A DNA stretch of 64,000 nt from Sphaerodactylus townsendi. Its lineage: Eukaryota. Made by a program: the position numbers and the translations under genes. The notes under the pieces are model-generated. The model was not told the DNA's origin. It saw only the letters and a list, made by a program, of their open reading frames with translations, and searched no databases. Each line of letters starts with the position of its first letter. The first letter of the stretch is position 1. Below are positions 6,675 to 49,784 of the stretch, in pieces. The stretch is taken from assembly GCF_021028975.2 (NCBI RefSeq), contig NC_059428.1, forward strand, positions 109,678,001-109,742,000, given 5' to 3'.

Positions 6675-7004
6675 GTAAGAACATTCTCTGAATGCTAAAT
6701 TACTTTGAGGGCAGGGGATCTCCTTTGAAGCTTGTAAAGAATTCAATAAACATAGAAAGTGAAAGCAAGAAAATCAAAAACTGGGATCCACTTAGCAACT
6801 TTAGGTAGATTCAAGGGTTAAGATGGCCAGTAAGGTTTTTCAAACCTTTTCCCATTGAATAGCATGACATCACATTGGAAACTGCTTAGAAAGCTCTCTC
6901 ATTGATGCAAAATTGGTTATCATCAAGAATGAAGAGGCATTGTTGAACAAAAAACACACAATTTCACTGGACAAAGTATGTAGCACACTCCTCTTTGTGA
7001 TACA

Positions 7005-12933: not shown

Positions 12934-13912
12934 ATTTCACCCACCGTCCATTGTTGGCACTCTGGGAAGCTCTGCAGCTGCTGCCAAACTCCTGGACCTT
13001 AACCAATTCCAGTGCAAGGAGGCCCTGGCTATCGCTGCCTCTTATGCTGGGGCGCCATTAGCCAATGCAGCTACCCAGACAAAGCCTCTCCACATGGGCA
13101 ACGCAGGCAGACACGGCTTGGAAGCGGCCTTCTTAGCCTCCTCAGGCCTTCAAGCAAACAAGTTGATCCTGGACTTAGAGTCAGGCTTTGGTGCTTTTTA
13201 TACAGACTACTTACCTCAGACTCTGCCAAGTTTGCAATCCTATGCGTGGCTTTTGGGTCAACAAGATGTAGCTATCAAGAGCTTTCCAGCCCACCTGGCA
13301 ACCCACTGGATGGCAGAGGCAGCCTTGGCAGTAAGGAAACACCTGGCCAAGAGCACAGAATCCCTTCCAAGTGGCCTCATCAAGGCGATTGTGCTTGAAG
13401 TCCCAGACATTCAATATGTGAACAGGCCATTCCCTGCCTCAGAACACGAGGCCAGGCATTCCCTCCAATTTGCAGGCTGCACTGCCCTTTGGGACGGCTA
13501 CGTATCTATGGAGTCATTCGAACAGCAGAACATCTCCAGGCCTGAGTTAAGCGAACTGCTCAGAAAGACACACCTGGAGCATTCCCCCAACAACCAGCCC
13601 AGCTTCAAGGACCTCTACTGCCAAGTGACGATTGCCCTTCAAGATGGAGCCAAGGTGACAGAGCGCTGTGACACATTCTATGGGCACTGGAGAAAGCCGC
13701 TAAGGCAGGGGGATCTGGTGAAGAAATTCCAGTCTAACGCCACTACTGTTCTCTCACTGGAAGCTGCTGAAAGCATGGTAGAAGTAGTCAGTAACTTAGA
13801 AAAGCTCGATGACTGCAGGTTGTTGACTTCCCTACTGCAGGGGGCCGAGTCAACAAGCAAACTATTAAAACACAGTAATGGACAGATTTGCAACAGACTT
13901 GCTGTGCTGTAA
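12934..13912 (+). CDS. ACOD1: ACOD1 coding exon 5 (terminal)
   Basis: ccttccctcag|(R)FHPPSIVGTLGS...ANAATQTKPLH...KSFPAHL...QYVNRPFP...DTFYGHWRKPL...TAA; spliced CDS 1449 nt = 482 aa. Confidence 0.97.
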
Positions 13913-15130: not shown

Positions 15131-17522
15131 GGAAGAGAGCACAATTTACACTTCCACAGCAGGGCAATCCCAAACAGTTCTCCAATGGACATAGAAGGGT
15201 ATAACTGCTTAGGACTGCAATGACAACTCAGTCCAAGCAAAAGTACAATTAGTTTCTAGCTGCATGTACCTCAAAAGCAAAATTATTTCTTAAAGCAAAT
15301 ATGTTTAGCCACTTCAGGAGGAAAAGCATCTCACTCGTAAGACTTTCCCCCTCAAAAAATGGTGGGGTGATGGTCTATGCTGGTTTTATTGATTATATAG
15401 TGATGTTCACTGCCCCGAGCCCTCTGGGGGAGGGCAGAAGTTTTCACAGTAAATAAAGGCTTTCTAATGAATGTGAGCATAGGCCTTCCCATGTCAATCT
15501 TTGGTAAAATCTCCACATTCATGATGGATCTAAGTAGGATCTTCTGTGATTACAGTAGGATAAGGTTCATGGGAGCAAATGGGCAGTTGAGGTAATGGAG
15601 GCATGGAGATAATAACATCTCATTAAGCTGCTAGCACTTTCTTCTCCAGGTCTGCCGGCAAAAGGACCGTCACTGCTTTCCCCAAGGAAACACAAGGCTC
15701 ACAATTACACATTAACAACTGGAACCACCCAAAGAATGCAGAACATCCTTTACCTTGAAGGCCCAGGGGGTGGAGGAGGCACAACACTTTCATGTTCCAG
15801 GACGGCCAGATCTTGACCTTCCTTTTCTGCAAGTCTTTTAACTGACAACTTTCCATAAAGCCTTTTGATGGTGTCAGATAATTTATATGAAAACATGCTC
15901 GGTTTGTGCTGGTTTTGTGCCTTTGTTTTTCCAATAGGTCAAACCCTTTAAAATAAAAGTCTAGAAAGCCAAGAAATAAAACATAAATAGAACTGCTAAT
16001 TTGCATAGTTCTTCAGACCACATGATGCAGCTTTTTTGCAGTTGGACTGCAGTATTTTTAGTCCACGGAGCACACACAAGCCTACTTATCAGAGCTCCAA
16101 TGGAGACGAGAGTGGACCCTTAACCCTAAGTTATATCCCTTTTCCAGGCTCACATACCCAAGTGGGATGACTGAGGCTTTTGTCTGGGTACTTTTAAAAA
16201 GAAAATATGGCCTTTTAATTGGATCTTTTAATCTGAATTCTGCACTATAATAGGAAGAAGTGCTGTTCAAGCACTGCCCATACAAAGCCCTGCTACTTTG
16301 AGAAACAGCTTTTTATATTGGAACTCAAGAACAACTGACTCTTAAACATGTTTATTTTTATTTACTTCATTTATGACCTCCATGTTTCCACAGTGTGGAT
16401 CCAAACTGGCTTACATAATTTCCCTCTTCTGCCCTTGTGGTCTCACAACAACTAGGTTAGGTTGAGAGTGCATGATTGGCTCAAGATCACCAAACAAATT
16501 TCCATGGCAGAGGAGGGATTACAAACCTGAATCTCCCAGATCATAGTCTGACACCCGACCCCTACACCACACTGGCTCTAACTTCAAGAGGAACATTTAA
16601 ATGTAATGGAAATTAATTCCGACCAAGCTTGAACTCGGAGCCACAGGTATGATGTGTAATTCTAAGAGACTGCCAAGAATTCAGGCCTCTGTGACTCTCA
16701 GTTTTTAAACACACAAGTTTCTAGTCCTTATGAATGCAAATATATGCTTGAAAAAGTCTTTGTGTGCTCAGAAGCCGAAGTATGGTGGCTGAATAAGATT
16801 TATTGTATTATAAGTGCTACTTACTTACTCCTTCCGTGGTGAGCAAAACCAGAATGAACGGTGCAAAAGAGAGTTCAAAATGCAGGACAAGTATGCATAT
16901 CTGCATAATTTGTAGTGGTGAACACATTAAGATTGCCTGGGAACAGAGATCTGATATTTTAAATATGGAGCACAAACAATAATGCCCAAGAAGGCAGCCA
17001 CCTACTACTTACAGGCATAATGAAGGGTTCCCAAAGGAGATCAGCAACTGGCAATTCCAAGGCCAAACACAGAGTTATTTGGACCTGCAGTTACCAACCG
17101 AAAGGCAAGATAGTACGTGCTCAGAGAAAAGCATCAGCAGCACCCTCCCCTCCAGTAAAACCAGCTGCTAACTTTGTGCTTATTTAACACAAACATTACG
17201 AACAGTTTAGCCCACACTGTGCTTACTTCAAGACAAAGGGGAAGAAGAGAAAACAAAGCCATAACTAGCTAATTTTGCGCCCAAAGCAGGAATATAAAAT
17301 TGCACCCCCATCTTTTCATAGTAGTTATTCTGGTAAAAAGGTACAGACGTAAATAACAAGAGTAATAATAAAAACACATCTTCTGAACAGTCAACAACTG
17401 AAGTTTAAGATTCCTTTTCAACTCAGTTAAATGCTTTTATTCATTTCACCAATCACCCAGCTGTGTGTGTGGCATATTTACTGGCAGACATCAAGAGTGT
17501 GGGTGAGCACAACCTTCCAACC

Positions 17523-17715
17523 TCATGCAAGCCTCATGACTTCACCAACCATTGCTCCAATTCCATCAAAGATTTCATGCAAAGGAGCTTTGCACATGAA
17601 AGCACAAGTAGAAACTATTTTGTGGATGGAGTCAACATGGGCTTCGTTCACACCTTTGCAAACATGCTTGCACCCCAGTTCCTCAATAGCAGAAGCCGTC
17701 TCAAAGTCAGGAAAT
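17523..17715 (-). CDS. GATD3-like coding exon 4 (terminal)
   Basis: tctcttgtag|(R)FPDFETASAIEELGCKHVCKGVNEAHVDSIHKIVSTCAFMCKAPLHEIFDGIGAMVGEVMRLA*; spliced CDS 678 nt = 225 aa; AATAAA on the minus strand at 17436-17441. Confidence 0.93.
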
Positions 17716-18689
17716 CTACAAGAGAGAAAGAGAACATTGGACTGAGCTCAGAAACACACTGGTAGCTTGGGGAAAGTTGTCATCACAGGGTGTGCAACGG
17801 TGGGCACCAACTAATAGGCGATTGAATTTTGCACCAGCTGCAATTTCTGGATTGCTTTCAAGGGCTGCTCCACATGACAGTAGTCTATCCTTGAGGTTGC
17901 AATAGTGTGAAGCAGTAGGGTCATCAGTTAGGTCCAACAAGAGAGTCAAATTCTATATAAGATGAAATATGCACTTTTAGAAAAAAAAAGTTGGGTTAAT
18001 TACTAACAAGAGGGTAGAATCTACCACCCCCACCTCTCAACAGATTCATCCAGAGACCGTTAACTCCAGCAAAAGTATAACACTTTCAGGGCATCTGTCT
18101 TTCCACAAAATACTACCTGTATTATGTCTGGATTCAGCTTCCACGTGTTTCCACCACCACCACCTTTGGAAGGAGACAGCTGCTTCTGAAGGCTTTCAAA
18201 AAGAAATCTAGAGCTCGGTTTCATCAGTTTATTGATGACATGCAGCTCCAAAGCTACAGATGTCCTAATTAAGAAGTACCATGGGAGACTATATAAAGCT
18301 TTGTGGCATGTCACAGGGCAAATTTCAAGATGCTAATTCAGCCCCAGACCCCTCCCCCTGGCCACACACATTTATTCTCTAAGATGCTGGAAAGTGCTGT
18401 CAAGTCACAGTCGAATGATGGTGATCCAGAAGGTGAGAAACAAACACAGATGATTTGCCATTGCCTGCCTCTCTATCACAACCCTAGACTTGCTTGGTGG
18501 TTTCCCATCCCAGTACTAACTCAGCTCTGCTTAGCTTCCAAGATCTGACTGGACTGGGCTAGTCCTGGCCATTCCAAGTCAAGACGCTCCTTCCACACAT
18601 GAACAAAAAAGATTTTAATGCACACAAGTGCTTTCCCGTGACCAACTTCAGTTGCATCAACAAATATTCAGTGGTCTACTGGCCAACGT

Positions 18690-18990
18690 ATCTTATTAAC
18701 CTAACCTCAACAGTTATGCAGGCTCGTCTAAACATTCTTCCCTTGGCAGACACAAGGGGAAGATTTTTTCACGTTCCCTTGAAAGAACGATTATGCAATT
18801 GCTCCCTCAAGCAAGTTGAGACCACTGAACACATTCTATTTTGTACTACACAAACACAAAAAGCAGAGAAGAGTATTTATTGAGCTTCATATCAACAGAT
18901 ACTCATCTATCTCCAACTTGGACAAGATTCGGCTGCTTTTAAACGACTGTAATATCAGACGAACTGAAGACGTGGCTATATTTTATCAAA
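18690..18990 (+). mobile_element. LINE C-terminal zinc-knuckle fragment (RTE-X/L1-Tx1-like)
   Basis: ARLNILPL..GRF..VPLKERLCNC..VETTEHILFC in ORF 18599..18883. Confidence 0.6.
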
Positions 18991-19222
18991 TGTATATAAT
19001 ACCCTTGATCTTTTACCTATGCCAACAAAGGTTAATGAATGAATAGTGGTCTGCTAAGTTGAAGACAGTCAAGAGATCAAACAGTAACAGAGAAATGTAC
19101 CCCTTATCAACAAATAAGCCAAGATAATTCACCAGAGCAAAGTAAGCCACCTCTGACTTTAAGCAAGTCTGAAAAGGGCAGATTAATTGTCAAAAAAGTC
19201 TAATTAAAATAGTTTCTTATAC

Positions 19223-19427
19223 CTTCCATCTACATTTTTATTGTAGCCTACAGTGACTTCACATCCAGGGAAAATTTTAGCTGCCAACACAGGGGAGATA
19301 CAGCACAAGCCAATGGGTTTCTTTGCGTTGTGGAATCCTTCAAGGGTTGACTTCACAAGTTCATTGACAGTGCAGTCCTTTCCATCCACAGCCCAGGAAC
19401 ACAGGTTCTTTGCTACTCCAAACCCCC
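19223..19427 (-). CDS. GATD3-like coding exon 3 (nucleophile-elbow Cys, KPIGLCCISP)
   Basis: ttttcag|(G)GFGVAKNLCSWAVDGKDC...KPIGLCCISPVLAAKIFPGCEVTVGYNKNVDG(R)|gtataa; 205 nt. Confidence 0.95.
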
Positions 19428-20936
19428 CTGAAAAGAAAAACAAGGAAGGGTTATGAATTTGCTTTTTGATGCAATCAGTCCCAGTGAGAAGAATATTTCC
19501 TTCAGATGTAATGAATTCCTCCCCTTGCCCCGCCTCATATAACGTATGGCACAGTTTTCTTAATAGATTACGCCCTAAAGATTCAGGGCCTTCAGCTTAG
19601 CAATTATGCACATTCCCACCCAAAGTAAAAAAAGGGGGAAGAAAATTCATCCAATTCAGACATGCTTTTGTGGTTGTAGCATCTCTGATTTCTGGAAAAG
19701 GCAAATACAAAATTAGTCACAAAGTTATTAAATTCTAAAAGACCGTTGAAAAAAGTGTGCCTACAAAGAACAGCCTTCCACGGATGCTCAAAATTTATCT
19801 TAATTTACTTGATTCATTTATAACCTTTCAATGGAGAGTCAAAACAGTTTATATCATTCTCTTCTCCTTCAACGTATCCTTACAACAACCCTGTAAGGTA
19901 GACTAAAATGACACCATGTGACTGCCACAAGATTAACCAGTGAGCTGCCTTGGCACCAGTGGGGATTTGAACCTGGACCTCCAGATACCAGTTCAACACT
20001 CTTAATCACTATAATGGCTCAAAAGACCACCAGCAGACATACGATGTTAGTGCTGTTACAGAATTTCAAAGTTATCACCAAGAAGCTTTAAAAAAAAAGA
20101 AATTCCCAACGAGAAAAGAAATTCCCAATGAACACTGCAATTCGTTTGTTGGAAACTGAGTCAGCAATACAAATAGGTCATCAGATAGCATGTGTCCATC
20201 TGTTACCTATAAGTAACTTTATGGAAAATCCTCATGGCTTGCTTCAGGGATATATCACGGGATAGGATACTTTTACTTCCTGTAAAAACAACCTGTACTC
20301 AGACAGGACAACTGAGCATTACTTTTATCAGATAATCCAGTTTGAAAACACTGCAAAAATGTTCAGGCCAACACTCTGTTTGTCACTTGTCCCCAGTGTC
20401 AAAATTAATTAAACTTTTAAGTTATTGGCCAAATGAAAAGTCCATTGAGGTTATGGAAATGTATACACCCAATTTCCCTGCAAGGTACACTTTGCTGAGC
20501 ATTTTTATACTAATTCTGAGGGAATTCACTTCCCTGTTCCTCATCACTCACCCTTTTCTGGAGGCAGCAGTGGAGGATTCAGAGTACCTAAGGGAAAATT
20601 ATGTTTCTAAGTCCACAGCTGAAGTGGTCCAAGCTTAGGTAGCTTCCTAGTCCACAATACTATTAAGCAGAGGGACCGACCTGTTCTACAGTTTCTCCAA
20701 TGACCTCAAGGTAAATACTGTGATTTTTTAAAACACTTCCTGGGAAGCGGGACAGTGTCAGAATCTGTGCCACGAGAAAGCCAAAGGGAAGACACTTAAG
20801 AAAGCAATAAGTGTAGATACACAAGGCCCTTTTATATAAACAATAACCAAACTATATCCCAATGAAAATAATAGTGCTGTCTGTTTTAATTGTTCAAGTG
20901 GGTAGGGCACTTTTTTCTTTGGTAAACAAAAGAGCC

Positions 20937-21150
20937 AAGAGCCAATGTAGTGTAGTAATTAAGAGTGGCGGACTCTTATTGGGAGAAACAGGTTTGATTC
21001 CCCTCCCTTCCACATGAAGCCTGCAGGGTGACTCTGGGCCAATCACAGTTTCCTTAGAACTCTCTTAGTCCATGCAGAGGCAGGCAATGGCAAACCACCT
21101 CTGAATGTCTCTTACCTTAAAAAACTTACAAGGTGTCCATAAATCAGCTA
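20937..21150 (+). mobile_element. tRNA-head SINE with Sauria/RTE-type 3' part
   Basis: A/B boxes followed by gaggcaggcaatggcaaaccacctctga; similar copy at 54708-54910. Confidence 0.65.
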
Positions 21151-21506
21151 TGGTAATGGTGAACACACAGACATATACAAAATGGCAGGAGGTTGTCTTT
21201 GAATTTTAAAGGCTGAAATATCTCTGAAACGACCAGTCCCCACCTCCCCACTAGACCCCACTGACCTCTTTCTCAAACTAGGCCTGAGACCCTACAGCTG
21301 AAGGAGCTGTCAAGGTCTTCATACAGTAATGTAACCAAGTTCATTTGGATTTGGTTCTGGTAAATCTCTGAGTAACACACACCATAAAACAAAAGAAGGC
21401 TTTATTAAAGAATTTTAAAAGGTGAGTGCAGGAAGAGAGTGGGAGAAATCACTTCAGAAAGAGGATTATTGTTTCGATCGCTGCTGAAAGGAAGCAAAAG
21501 GCTCAC

Positions 21507-21678
21507 CTGGGAAAACAACAGCATCAAATTCACCCACTTTCAATTCTGCCAAATCCTGGATATTGCCTCTTGCAAGCCGGGCACTTTCCACAAGGACGTT
21601 TCTCTTTTCGTCGCTTGGACTGCCTTTTAAATGGTCTACTACATGCATCTGCTCAATATTGGGTGCAAAGATCTTCAC
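21507..21678 (-). CDS. GATD3-like coding exon 2
   Basis: ttttcag|[57 protein letters not shown](G)|gtgagc; 172 nt. Confidence 0.95.
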
Positions 21679-22928
21679 CTGAAAAGAAAAGGGGTAACTG
21701 TTGCATTGGATACATTACAATGTACTGTCAAGTACAACAGATCAAGAAACTTCAGCATTTCATGCCAACTAGTTTTAAGAAAACACAATTAATCTTTGAT
21801 TGGGCACATATGCCAGTGTGATATATTAGTTAAAGTATTAGACTAGGATCTTAGAGAACTGGATTCAAATCCCCACTCTGCCTTGAGAAGCTGGTTGGAC
21901 AACTTTGGGTCAATCACACTCTCTCAGCCTGATTCCAACTGTACCTCAGAGATCAACATGATTTTTGGGTGGGCCACTGCGAGTAGTAGAGTGGTAGACT
22001 AGATGGACTCTGGTCTGATCCAGCAGACTCTTTCTTATGTTCTTATGTACTGTTGTCATGATAGCCAAACTCTCTTCATCAGATAACAAGGGCCTTCAAC
22101 TCTCAAAAATCTTGTGGATCTTTAAAGGTGCTACTAGATTTGAATCTAGTTGTTTTACCTCAGACCAACATGGTTACCCTCTGAAACTGCCTCACAATAT
22201 TGTTGTTAAGATAAAATGGAGATGTGAAGATCGATGTATGCCATTTTGGGTCCCCAATTGGGAGAAAGGAGAATTATAAATGAAGTAAATAAATTAACAA
22301 TTTTCAAAAATGCGTTGATAATACCTTCAGTATGCAATTTAAAGGTAAACACAGTCCCCTATGAAAGTACTGAGTCACTACTGACCTATGGGGTGACATC
22401 ACATCACAACATTTACCAGGCAGACTGTGTTTACAGGGTACACAATTTAATTCTCACTAAATAACAGCTTAAACTTACTTTTGCTGAATCTTTGACTTTG
22501 TTTTAAAATACCACCACTAAAAGCAATGGCTGCAGCTTCTAATTCTTTATACGGCTTTTACCAGAAAAGGCCTGTATTTTGGAACATGCATACGTGGCCT
22601 TTCAATCCTGGGGCAATCTTTTCAGAAGCCATGGGCCTACGGAGCATATTAACATATTAAACAAACCAGTGTAGATCAGAAAACAGAGCACCAAAGTAAT
22701 ATTTCCCTGCTGGGTTGCAAAAACCATCTTCCCCAGCAGCCTGGAGACAGTCTCTGAATTTAGAGACTCCCAAATCCTTCCTACAAATTTCTAGACAAAC
22801 TTTTCTTAGGGATAAAAATGCACCTTGGCTCTTTGAAAATGATTAATTTAGCATTTCAGCGATGAAGCATCTACAAACACCTGCTGCAAAGGAAGTGCTG
22901 AGAGATTACTTCCCTGGCCAGGAGCAGT

Positions 22929-22929
<1 letters not shown>

Positions 22930-22976
<47 letters not shown>
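22930..22976. repeat. (GA)n microsatellite in GATD3-like intron 1
   Basis: About 23 uninterrupted GA units. Confidence 0.95.
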
Positions 22977-22978
<2 letters not shown>

Positions 22979-23097
22979 TGTCTGCTACCCATAGAGTTTG
23001 CATTGCAATGGGGCAGGGAGGGAGAAAGGGCTTTGCTTGCAAAGGGGACCCCACGAGCTTATCTTCTTGGGGATCGGCGGTTAGTTTGCAGCCTCAC

Positions 23098-23205
23098 CTC
23101 TGCTCCAGCCCGACTGAGATGAACCAGCACGGCCGAGGCTTCGTGCACCTCGCTGCCATCGAAGACCCCGCAGCCGGCCAGCACAAGGGCCACCCTCTTC
23201 CCCAT
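23098..23205 (-). CDS. GATD3/ES1/ElbB-like protein (DJ-1/PfpI superfamily), coding exon 1
   Basis: gcggccATGG Kozak; [36 protein letters not shown]|gtgagg; 108 nt; not in the ORF track. Confidence 0.93.
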
Positions 23206-23249
23206 GGCCGCCTCCGGGCTCCCCTTCTCTAGCTACTGCGCAGCTGCGG

Positions 23250-24210
23250 TGCTAAAGAAAAGAAAAGAAAAAAAGGAGGGTGGGAGTTAATGTGGTCTCC
23301 TGGGCATGCTCCACCCGAGGCAGGATGTGGCCTCTTACTCGGGAGCAAGATCTGAGGCTGTTTCCTGCCAGGTGTGCGCGCATTTGCACACTTCCCCTTG
23401 TGGACACCTGTGCCCAGATTGAAAGTTGCGCTTCTGTCTAGGCATAATTCCAAATTAGGAGGGTCTATTGGGGAAAGGAGTTATTCCCGGATAAACGCGT
23501 AGATTTAGACGGTGGTTTGTGTTCTGCATCGGACCCGACGGGATCCCAGTACACGCGACAGGATCTGTGAGGGCCCACCGTTCTTACTGGTTTTTATAAC
23601 AAGCCGAACAACCACAGAGCCTACACAGCATCCCTCTTCACAGAGGAAGCCCGCAGGTCCACTTGTAACAGCAGCGGTCTTTTGTTAGTACCAACTAATA
23701 CGACTCAAAAAAGTGAGCCAGTTTGCATAACTGGGACAGGACATTCAACCACCAAGATGCTTCCAGCCAAGAACGCGGTGCAAAGCTCCTATGCAGAATG
23801 GGACCACCAGAGCCTGGGGGTAAGGAACATTTCCACCAAGAATTCCGGGGTGGGGGGGGGGGAGGAGGTGTCGTCAGTCCATTGCGCCTAACTGCAACAG
23901 GGGCACCTTGACGTCCTTTTCAGAGGGACTGCGCCGTAATATGCAAACCTACGGAGGAGTCTCATTTCATTAAACAGGGCTGACTCCCCAATGAACAGGA
24001 CTGCAGCCTCAACCGGCCCCTCGCCCTCTGCAAGTGAGCCCAGAGCGCCCCAAGCCCGTCTCTCCCTTCAGCGGCTTCATAGTGTTCAGTGAGCATGTGC
24101 AAAAGGCGGAGCCTCTTGTCATGTGATGGGTTGAAGTCAGCTGACTGCAGGGCGTGATGACAGAATAAATCTCCCAAGAAGAGTAATGCTGGAGGAGTTG
24201 CGGTGAGGAT
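23250..24210. promoter_or_regulatory. CpG-rich bidirectional promoter shared by the GATD3-like gene and CLN5
   Basis: Divergent ATGs at 23205 (-) and 24209 (+), about 1 kb apart; locally raised CpG; M-box TCATGTGA 24119-24126; palindrome GTCAGCTGAC 24136-24145. Confidence 0.7.
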
Positions 24211-24318
24211 GGCGGAGGGTCATGGCGGACGATCCTTGCTGCTCTTGTGGTTGAGCCCGCTGTTCCTGGGATTGGCGGTGGGATGCTCGGGGCCCCTGCG
24301 ATGGCCCGTCCCGTACAG
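24209..24318 (+). CDS. CLN5: CLN5 (lysosomal BMP synthase) exon 1 with signal peptide
   Basis: aggATGG; MAEGHGGRSLLLLWLSPLFLGLAVGCSGPLRWPVPY(R)|gtgagt; the WPVPY motif is typical of CLN5. Confidence 0.9.
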
Positions 24319-24596
24319 GTGAGTCGGTCTGCTGCATCCGACAGGTAGAGAGGCAGCTCTTAGCAAGGGTCCTGCTGTGACCAGAGCCTCTTGCGGGCTA
24401 GTGCAGGAGCAGAGATGCCAGCCGACATTTGAACACTTTACCCCTCTGCCCGCATCAGACAGGGTGGAGGGAATAAGAATCAACAGGGATTGGGGAAGAC
24501 GTGGAGTTATTACCTGAACTGACAATAGTGGGGAAGGGCTGGTTTGACCCACAGTCTGGGTAGGTTGGGTATGTTTTTCAAGTGGCTGAATTAGAG

Positions 24597-44679: not shown

Positions 44680-44802
44680 CTTTGGTAAATCCATGAAGCT
44701 TGGTCGAGCAGTGGAAATTAATCCAAGAGTTTTTAAGGAGCAGTTCACAAGCTGTGATAAAATATCACAAGCTGCTTCAGCTGATTCCTTGCTGCTGTCC
44801 AC
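44680..44802 (-). CDS. FBXL3: FBXL3 coding exon 2
   Basis: ttttgaag|[41 protein letters not shown]|gtatta; 123 nt; not in the ORF track. Confidence 0.95.
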
Positions 44803-49418: not shown

Positions 49419-49784
49419 CTTGAAACTAACATACTGTAAATGATTTGAATGCCTTTTGATAATTTGCTTAATAAGCTCTGGATGAGTAGCCTTCAAATAA
49501 GATGTAGCTGGCTGATTCAGTTCAAACTCAAAACATCTCCACAGTTCAGGCATATGGAACACCTGGTTCCACCCACGGCAGACCTGTGATGCATGAGCAC
49601 GATCCAGAAGAGGCAAATACTGGAACACCTGCAGAACAATGTCTGGAATGAGATTTCCCCAGTCAGGGCTCTGAAGCACTCTGGCACATCCTTGATCCGT
49701 TGTCTTCAGCTTTTTACCATCTGCTGTATTCTCCTCATCTGATAAATGATCACTGGCTTTGCTGTTTTTTCTTCCTCGTTTCAT
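49419..49784 (-). CDS. FBXL3: FBXL3 coding exon 1 (F-box)
   Basis: tatag|a ATG KRGRK...[36 protein letters not shown]...[11 protein letters not shown]|gtaact; spliced CDS 1305 nt = 434 aa. Confidence 0.96.

Follow-up and report, generated by a model that had tools for sequence, protein, structure and literature searches.

The window, that is, the whole 64,000-nucleotide (nt) stretch of DNA from the gecko Sphaerodactylus townsendi that was analyzed, contains, in order, ACOD1 (+), an ElbB-like gene (−), CLN5 (+), and FBXL3 (−); the ElbB-like gene between ACOD1 and CLN5 (hereafter, the window gene) is our subject. It has four coding exons on the (−) strand, and all of its introns are GT-AG: exon 1 (23098..23251; 108 nt coding, ATG at 23205, and a likely 5′ untranslated region of 46 nt, bounded by a strong splice acceptor), exon 2 (21507..21678; 172 nt, phase 0 start, phase 1 end), exon 3 (19223..19427; 205 nt), and exon 4 (17523..17715; 193 nt, including the stop codon). 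The introns fall at residues 37, 94, and 162, and the joined coding exons (678 nt) encode 225 amino acids plus the stop; the product is identical in sequence to XP_048350248.1. A predicted AATAAA polyadenylation signal lies 81 nt past the stop (17436..17441, −), and intron 1 contains a CT microsatellite (22931-22980). A first-pass annotation, made from the sequence alone, had described an intact open reading frame (ORF) of four exons and 225 codons; we reproduce its exons, GT-AG ends, and translation and find each of the five motifs that it named at its position. It had also predicted a mislabeling, and RefSeq does name the protein ‘GATD3, mitochondrial’; many genomes have an annotated copy with this misleading GATD3 name, in GenBank as well as in RefSeq.

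The product is a full-length match, far beyond chance, to the NCBIfam ElbB profile NF008747 (261.5 bits; cut-off, 180). Its structure, modeled with 97 sequences, has a predicted local distance difference test score (pLDDT) of 97 and a class I glutamine-amidotransferase-like fold that superimposes on 1oy1, 1vhq, and 5lir with a template modeling (TM) score of 0.93. Every invariant active-site residue is kept: Glu22 and Cys136 are present in 97/97 aligned proteins, with exon 1 encoding strand 1 and the helix that bears the catalytic Glu22 (codon 23142-23140) and exon 3 encoding the nucleophile elbow with Cys135 and Cys136 (Cys136 codon 19302-19300). In the alignment, Glu22 is the counterpart of Glu62, named as catalytic in GATD3A (PMC8935817). 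Asp165 and Cys199, each found in 88% of 130 orthologues, are clade-wide changes, as is the loss of Trp163; Phe166 and Ser197 are found in the gecko only and are not features of the clade. ElbB has 9 residues fewer in the loop that holds residues 155-165. These motif changes give a hint that the substrate may differ; a search of the ESM Atlas returned the known family only.

The Cys pair also bears on a published mutant. In the 268-residue primate GATD3 (with Glu62 numbered as in PMC8935817), the pair consists of Cys176 followed by Cys177; from bacteria to vertebrates, it is the second of these that never varies (177 in the primate protein, 136 in the window protein, where the pair is encoded by 19305-19300). 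The C176A mutant is reported to retain some activity (PMC8935817), and, judging from the alignment, this mutation may leave the true nucleophile in place.

A search of the gecko genome gives 12 matches that fall in three family loci. Canonical GATD3 is located at G000:C4:71.65 Mb, 38 Mb from the window gene; it has 7 exons and 40 extra N-terminal residues (the presequence), is 61% identical to the window protein, and has 0/6 introns at the positions of the 3 window-gene introns. Its last intron has AT-AC ends, the minor-spliceosome type (G000:C4:71,656,446-71,657,949); both leaderless paralogues have GT-AG introns only. The third locus (G000:C13:32.28 Mb) contains a leaderless sister gene, the C13 gene, that is 67% identical to the window protein and shares all 3 introns at the same positions and phases, with exon lengths of 108/172/202/193 vs 108/172/205/193 for the window gene. 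This leaderless paralogue with matching introns, located near IRG1L, is a new observation.

In a tree of 60 proteins, chosen from the 413 near-full-length members among 574 family proteins and rooted by distant eukaryotic and bacterial proteins on long branches, the window clade (support 100/99) and the C13 clade (99/92) are joined with support of 98/96, and canonical GATD3 and fish ES1 form their own group (98/94). The approximately unbiased (AU) test with 35 of these proteins rejects a grouping of the window clade with canonical GATD3 (p-AU 0.007). Thus, the tree, the intron positions, and the location of canonical GATD3 elsewhere back the first-pass claim of a separate paralogue; the window gene is neither the only GATD3 of this genome nor grouped with GATD3A, and, with a second leaderless paralogue on C13, the genome has more than one extra copy. 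Both leaderless clades have Trp105, which is Phe in the canonical and bacterial proteins. XP_067841592.1, a divergent, long-branched leaderless protein of 225 residues, falls loosely within the sister clade and by its sequence may be a third copy.

An origin of the gene in a bacterial operon was considered and rejected because the tree nests the window clade among animal GATD3 proteins; by this placement the leaderless start is secondary and not a mark of bacterial transfer. In searches among genome contigs, the ACOD1 exon found no relative (39 pattern matches, 0 confirmed), and tblastn of gecko IRG1, YrdC-like, and YaaH-like pieces against 80 metagenome ElbB-like loci (50 of at least 5 kb) gave no match, at low sensitivity.

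The window clade includes geckos, other lizards, turtles, birds, platypus, echidna, marsupials, frogs, salamanders, reedfish, sturgeon, bowfin, gar, and teleosts; in UniRef the fish members are named zgc:162944 and the chicken member GATD3A-like 1, names from which we infer that zebrafish NP_001119927.1 is zgc:162944. Retention ‘in sauropsids’, as first proposed, is therefore too narrow, since ray-finned fishes (sturgeon, zebrafish), amphibians, monotremes, and marsupials have orthologues too. The accompanying proposal of a loss in the human lineage has some support: no placental name occurs among the best 120 of 703 matches (many names end before the species), marsupials and platypus are within the top 20, and the same database did return placental canonical GATD3, which suggests that placental mammals have lost the gene. 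No member of the window clade was seen in sharks, parallel to IRG1; the C13 clade (the zebrafish si:ch211-153b23.5 type) includes sharks and monotremes (platypus) and has no therian among its best 120 matches, parallel to IRG1L. We count this partial match between the ranges of the two leaderless clades and those of IRG1 and IRG1L in favor of common descent with the IRG1 genes.

For the window gene, the absence of a leader depends on its 5′ end. An in-frame TAG (23233..23235, −) that doubles as a weak alternative acceptor lies 10 codons before the ATG; it is covered by contigs from 4/4 sequencing runs with no variant letter (a single study of at most 3 samples, one of them possibly the source of the assembly itself). 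Upstream of it is the strong splice acceptor (23252..23290, −), with a branch-point-like site (23290), a tract of 17/17 pyrimidines, and the AG at 23253-23252; this implies an upstream exon, likely non-coding, for which 23338 and 23587 are weak candidate donors. The TAG and this acceptor are where the first-pass annotation placed them. Its inference that no presequence can be encoded stands for the unspliced frame and for the three best acceptors, all of which (the strongest with an exon start at 23251) lead into the TAG; it does not stand for the acceptors past the TAG, which would permit short in-frame extensions and are weak (at most 8/17 pyrimidines vs 13–17 in real ones). The sequence thus supports a window gene with no leader in this gecko, and its main product is probably cytosolic.

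Across the family, we measured the extension beyond the conserved Met in near-full-length proteins and judged it by its charge and its count of acidic residues. The extension is at most 4 residues in 106/130 proteins of the window clade and in 101/110 of the C13 clade, vs 5/75 canonical proteins; chicken NP_001269129.1 and zebrafish NP_001119927.1 begin at the same Met as the gecko protein. At least 15 extra residues are found in 23 window-clade proteins (18 from percomorph-type fishes, with a conserved basic stretch of 26–30 residues that has few acidic ones, 1 from the tailed frog, 3 lacertid models, and 1 with no start Met). The internal Met persists in all but one of the extended proteins; the leader is therefore likely a gain of those lineages. 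The sequences suggest that mitochondrial or dual targeting arose more than once, in percomorph fishes and the tailed frog; as predicted from such extensions, ‘leaderless’ holds by lineage, not clade-wide.

Only two IRG1-family loci were found in the gecko genome, ACOD1 (IRG1; MmgE/PrpD) in the window and IRG1L on C13, and each has one leaderless GATD3-like gene nearby. The last coding exon of ACOD1 (12938..13912, +; stop, 13912) is tail-to-tail with the window gene, with 3,610 nt between the two stops. On C13, the leaderless gene is ∼65 kb from IRG1L; two YrdC-like and two GPR1/FUN34/YaaH-like genes (Pfam scores at or below cut-off) lie between them, and a centrin-like gene and OGT lie on the opposite side, so that the order over C13:32,260,000-32,350,000 is OGT, centrin-like, GATD3-like, YaaH-like, YrdC-like, YrdC-like, YaaH-like, IRG1L. 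With zebrafish counterparts that rise together by 3 to 6 log2 units in infection, the region resembles a metabolic gene cluster of vertebrates. Within 114 kb around ACOD1, these C13 neighbors, the YrdC-like and YaaH-like genes among them, have no credible match (one repeat-level match falls outside the coding part), and repeat matches dominated a comparison of all ORFs from the ACOD1 and IRG1L regions.

According to a preprint on IRG1 synteny (10.1101/2022.06.17.496652), IRG1 and IRG1L derive from a gnathostome duplication, IRG1L was lost in therians, IRG1 is absent in cartilaginous fish, and VOC, YrdC, 2Fe-oxygenase, and GAT genes adjoin both IRG1L and paleo-IRG1 (the oyster/amphioxus/lamprey-type pIRG1). 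In our tree, which has no lamprey or amphioxus member, both leaderless clades span bony vertebrates and one also includes sharks. Adjacency to ACOD1 in other species has two indirect signs: the Ensembl identifiers of zebrafish kctd12.1, acod1, and zgc:162944 (69843, 69844, and 69846) and, in three marsupials and two grouse, gene models that read through from FBXL3 (vide infra). Pairing of a leaderless GATD3-like gene with an itaconate-synthase gene is likely ancient.

Expression in zebrafish separates the two leaderless genes. In Shigella-infected larvae (PMC6980646), the log2 fold changes are +5.81 for irg1l, +3.79 for acod1, and −0.36 for gatd3a; si:ch211-153b23.3,.4, and.5 are at +6.04, +4.05, and +3.08, and zgc:162944 is not induced (+0.23, padj 1.0). 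Also, irg1l, si:ch211-153b23.3, and.5 are hubs of one co-expression module (PMC11140123) and occur in one table (PMC8877790). Among the lists from sorted cells in the accessible part of PMC6499218, the core-macrophage list contains irg1, and zgc:162944 occurs in the lymphoid list only; neither acod1 nor zgc:162944 is in the infected-macrophage list. The supplement of PMC12886890 has no row for zgc:162944. The IRG1L-linked sister gene therefore behaves as a member of the cluster; the orthologue of the window gene does not.

On its other side the window gene is head-to-head with CLN5, whose first coding exon (24209..24318, +; ATG at 24209) precedes a later exon with the CLN5 Pfam match; the two start codons are divergent and 1,004 nt apart. 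The CpG-rich stretch between the two starts (23000..24400, no strand) is, from its sequence and position, likely a two-way promoter common to both genes. A simple motif scan between the window gene and CLN5 did not find kB, ISRE, or GAS sites; it had no chance control, and we do not use it as evidence. Inside ACOD1, GAS-, kB-, and ISRE-like motifs occur within 80 nt (6684-6764) and are a possible inducible enhancer, again with no chance control. Beyond CLN5, FBXL3 begins with its F-box exon (49419..49784, −), and a further FBXL3 exon with a phase 0 end (44680..44802, −) would splice in frame onto exon 2 of the window gene (21678); the resulting hybrid of the F-box exons and exon 2 spans CLN5 and is in frame in the gecko (352 amino acids). 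RefSeq has the same junction in three marsupials (opossum, tammar, dunnart) and two grouse (ptarmigan, prairie chicken), and the intact marsupial protein carries the RefSeq name ‘FBXL3 isoform X3’. Many other upstream pieces are also annotated onto this acceptor, and the FBXL3 read-through is most likely incidental.

With the gene structure, modeled fold, catalytic residues, paralogy, and IRG1L-side sister gene with the same introns in hand, we favor, at somewhat better than even odds, the reading that the window gene is an intact ElbB/ES1/GATD3 family gene with no leader, likely a constitutive cytosolic glyoxalase and a relic of an old IRG1 cluster; in the descent itself we have high confidence. 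An ancestral GATD3 copy with remodeled introns would have come to adjoin paleo-IRG1, and a vertebrate genome duplication would have produced the regions of ACOD1 and IRG1L; the former would then have lost its YrdC-like and YaaH-like genes and retained the window gene, which would have come under the CpG-island promoter of CLN5, lost its co-induction with ACOD1, and disappeared from placental mammals. The enzyme would act outside mitochondria and independently of glutathione, by extrapolation from mouse ES1 and Escherichia coli ElbB. Cys136 would add to glyoxal to give a hemithioacetal, Glu22 would shift a proton, and the thioester would be hydrolyzed to glycolate; this sequence of steps is established DJ-1 chemistry. 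Mouse ES1, like ElbB, acts on glyoxal and not on methylglyoxal, and forms glycolate (PMC10209487); because the gecko protein has the same catalytic residues, it likely catalyzes this reaction, and by analogy glyoxal is, by a narrow preference, the candidate main substrate.

Several observations weigh against parts of this reading. The Pfam DJ-1/PfpI (PF01965) score of the window protein is 26.1, just below the cut-off of 26.6, and the physiological substrates of the DJ-1 superfamily are described as unsettled and disputed (PMC13333263). The regions of ACOD1 and IRG1L have just two gene pairs in common (114 kb vs 130 kb compared), which falls short of proof of a whole-genome duplication, and the invertebrate GAT genes beside pIRG1 are putative members of this clade. 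The preprint states that the VOC, YrdC, 2Fe-oxygenase, and GAT genes adjoin paleo-IRG1 and IRG1L ‘but not’ IRG1 (10.1101/2022.06.17.496652); the window, unlike this statement, shows a GAT gene directly adjoining ACOD1, as seen directly in the gecko genome only. The Shigella measurements are one whole-larva data set in which macrophage-only induction could be masked. As for location, the 18 percomorph-type orthologues and that of the tailed frog (Ascaphus) have a basic, acid-poor extension of 26–34 residues, and in this gecko weak splicing past the TAG could add 17–27 residues in frame.

The last two points would also support a mitochondrial or dual-located enzyme whose presequence would come from an upstream exon or an earlier start, as seems to be so for the percomorph orthologues. 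This alternative accounts for the strong acceptor, which implies an unseen upstream exon; a weak path (donor 23338, acceptor 23232, ATG 23383) would give a 24-residue extension with a net charge of +2, the percomorph extension is conserved among the 18 proteins, and two lacertid gene models have upstream frames of 84–90 residues. Given the strength of the acceptors that run into the TAG, the internal Met kept in nearly all extended orthologues, and the large majority that lack a real extension, we consider it unlikely for the gecko. That the window gene is instead the canonical GATD3 orthologue with an overlooked leader exon is what the database names, helped by the 61% identity, would imply; the real GATD3 with its 40-residue presequence on C4, the lack of common introns, the separate clades, and the AU test refute this identity and leave it virtually no chance. 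Scarcely more credible is a locus that matters chiefly by supplying the 3′ half of an FBXL3 read-through encoding an F-box::GATD3-like hybrid: the exact RefSeq junction in five species and the frame in the gecko speak for it, but the hybrid drops exon 1 and with it strand 1 and Glu22, so that poor folding and no activity are predicted for it, conservation of exon 1 is strong, and the same acceptor receives many other annotated upstream pieces.

A functional tie to ACOD1 is another reading. The window gene could be its working partner, retained next to it through a role in the same response, for instance an enzyme that hydrolyzes an itaconate-derived electrophile or clears dicarbonyls in activated macrophages; both IRG1-family genes have a leaderless neighbor, the linkage reportedly extends to invertebrates (10.1101/2022.06.17.496652), both leaderless clades share Trp105, and at IRG1L the neighbor si:ch211-153b23.5 rises with irg1l and is a hub in the same module (PMC11140123). 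Yet zgc:162944 is flat while acod1 is induced and is absent from the accessible core-macrophage list, the window gene points away from ACOD1 and has its CpG island in common with CLN5, placental mammals retain ACOD1 without it, and the KCTD12-ACOD1-CLN5-FBXL3 block is conserved as a whole, so the linkage needs no function; we regard this partnership as improbable. Equally speculative is a broader version in which itaconate synthase arose in an animal cluster of IRG1, a leaderless GATD3-like hydrolase, YrdC-like enzymes, and YaaH-like carboxylate transporters, a cluster still whole and infection-induced at IRG1L, with the window gene as the last companion of ACOD1, encoding a cytosolic enzyme that would act on an itaconate-related electrophile in all bony vertebrates except placentals.

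The window gene, then, is genuine, a leaderless and overlooked variant within a known enzyme family, and its link to the IRG1 locus is partly published. According to a 2026 review, the mitochondrial presequence is the trait that uniquely marks the ES1/GATD3 branch (PMC13333263), and the accessible part of PMC4772128 mentions a single ES1 paralogue only, with a presequence; contrary to the picture in the review, most jawed vertebrates hold one or two further leaderless members. The name ‘GATD3, mitochondrial’ for these will mislead expression and comparative work in fish, birds, and reptiles. We found no paper on the window gene and no functional study of zgc:162944 or its chicken orthologue in the literature searched, which excludes most subscription journals. 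The GAT gene beside IRG1 extends the sole published synteny analysis, where none was found there (10.1101/2022.06.17.496652, accessible part), and the fixed sites beside both itaconate-synthase genes provide a testable lead to missing itaconate enzymes, strongest for the IRG1L cluster. If the product is merely a housekeeping glyoxalase, the value lies in a corrected family history and another placental loss.

Among known systems, the closest are zebrafish zgc:162944 and chicken GATD3A-like 1 (NP_001269129.1), orthologues in the same clade (100/99) with the same start Met and with 75% and 86% identity, respectively, to the window protein; they show no substantial difference from it, and percomorph orthologues add the presequence-like extension. 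The si:ch211-153b23.5 and gecko C13 genes, in the sister clade, likewise have the same three introns, no leader, and a location beside an IRG1-family gene; unlike the window gene, they keep the canonical Trp-Pro-Tyr loop and have YrdC-like and YaaH-like neighbors. Mammalian GATD3 (GATD3A/C21orf33/mES1) belongs to the same subfamily (61–63% identity) and has the catalytic Glu and the Cys-Cys pair, but it differs in its presequence, its seven exons with boundaries at other positions, and its own clade and locus. Its location in the matrix and its activity as a glyoxalase have been demonstrated; for the window protein, a cytosolic location and glyoxalase activity are predicted. Fish cone ES1, of the same subfamily, is a long-branch offshoot of the canonical clade that has a presequence and lacks the Cys-Cys pair. 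E. coli ElbB (YhbL, SCRP-27A; 1oy1, 1vhq) shares the fold (TM 0.93, root-mean-square deviation ∼1 Å), the leaderless start, and 42% identity with the window protein, from which it differs in lacking the 9-residue insert that precedes residue 166.

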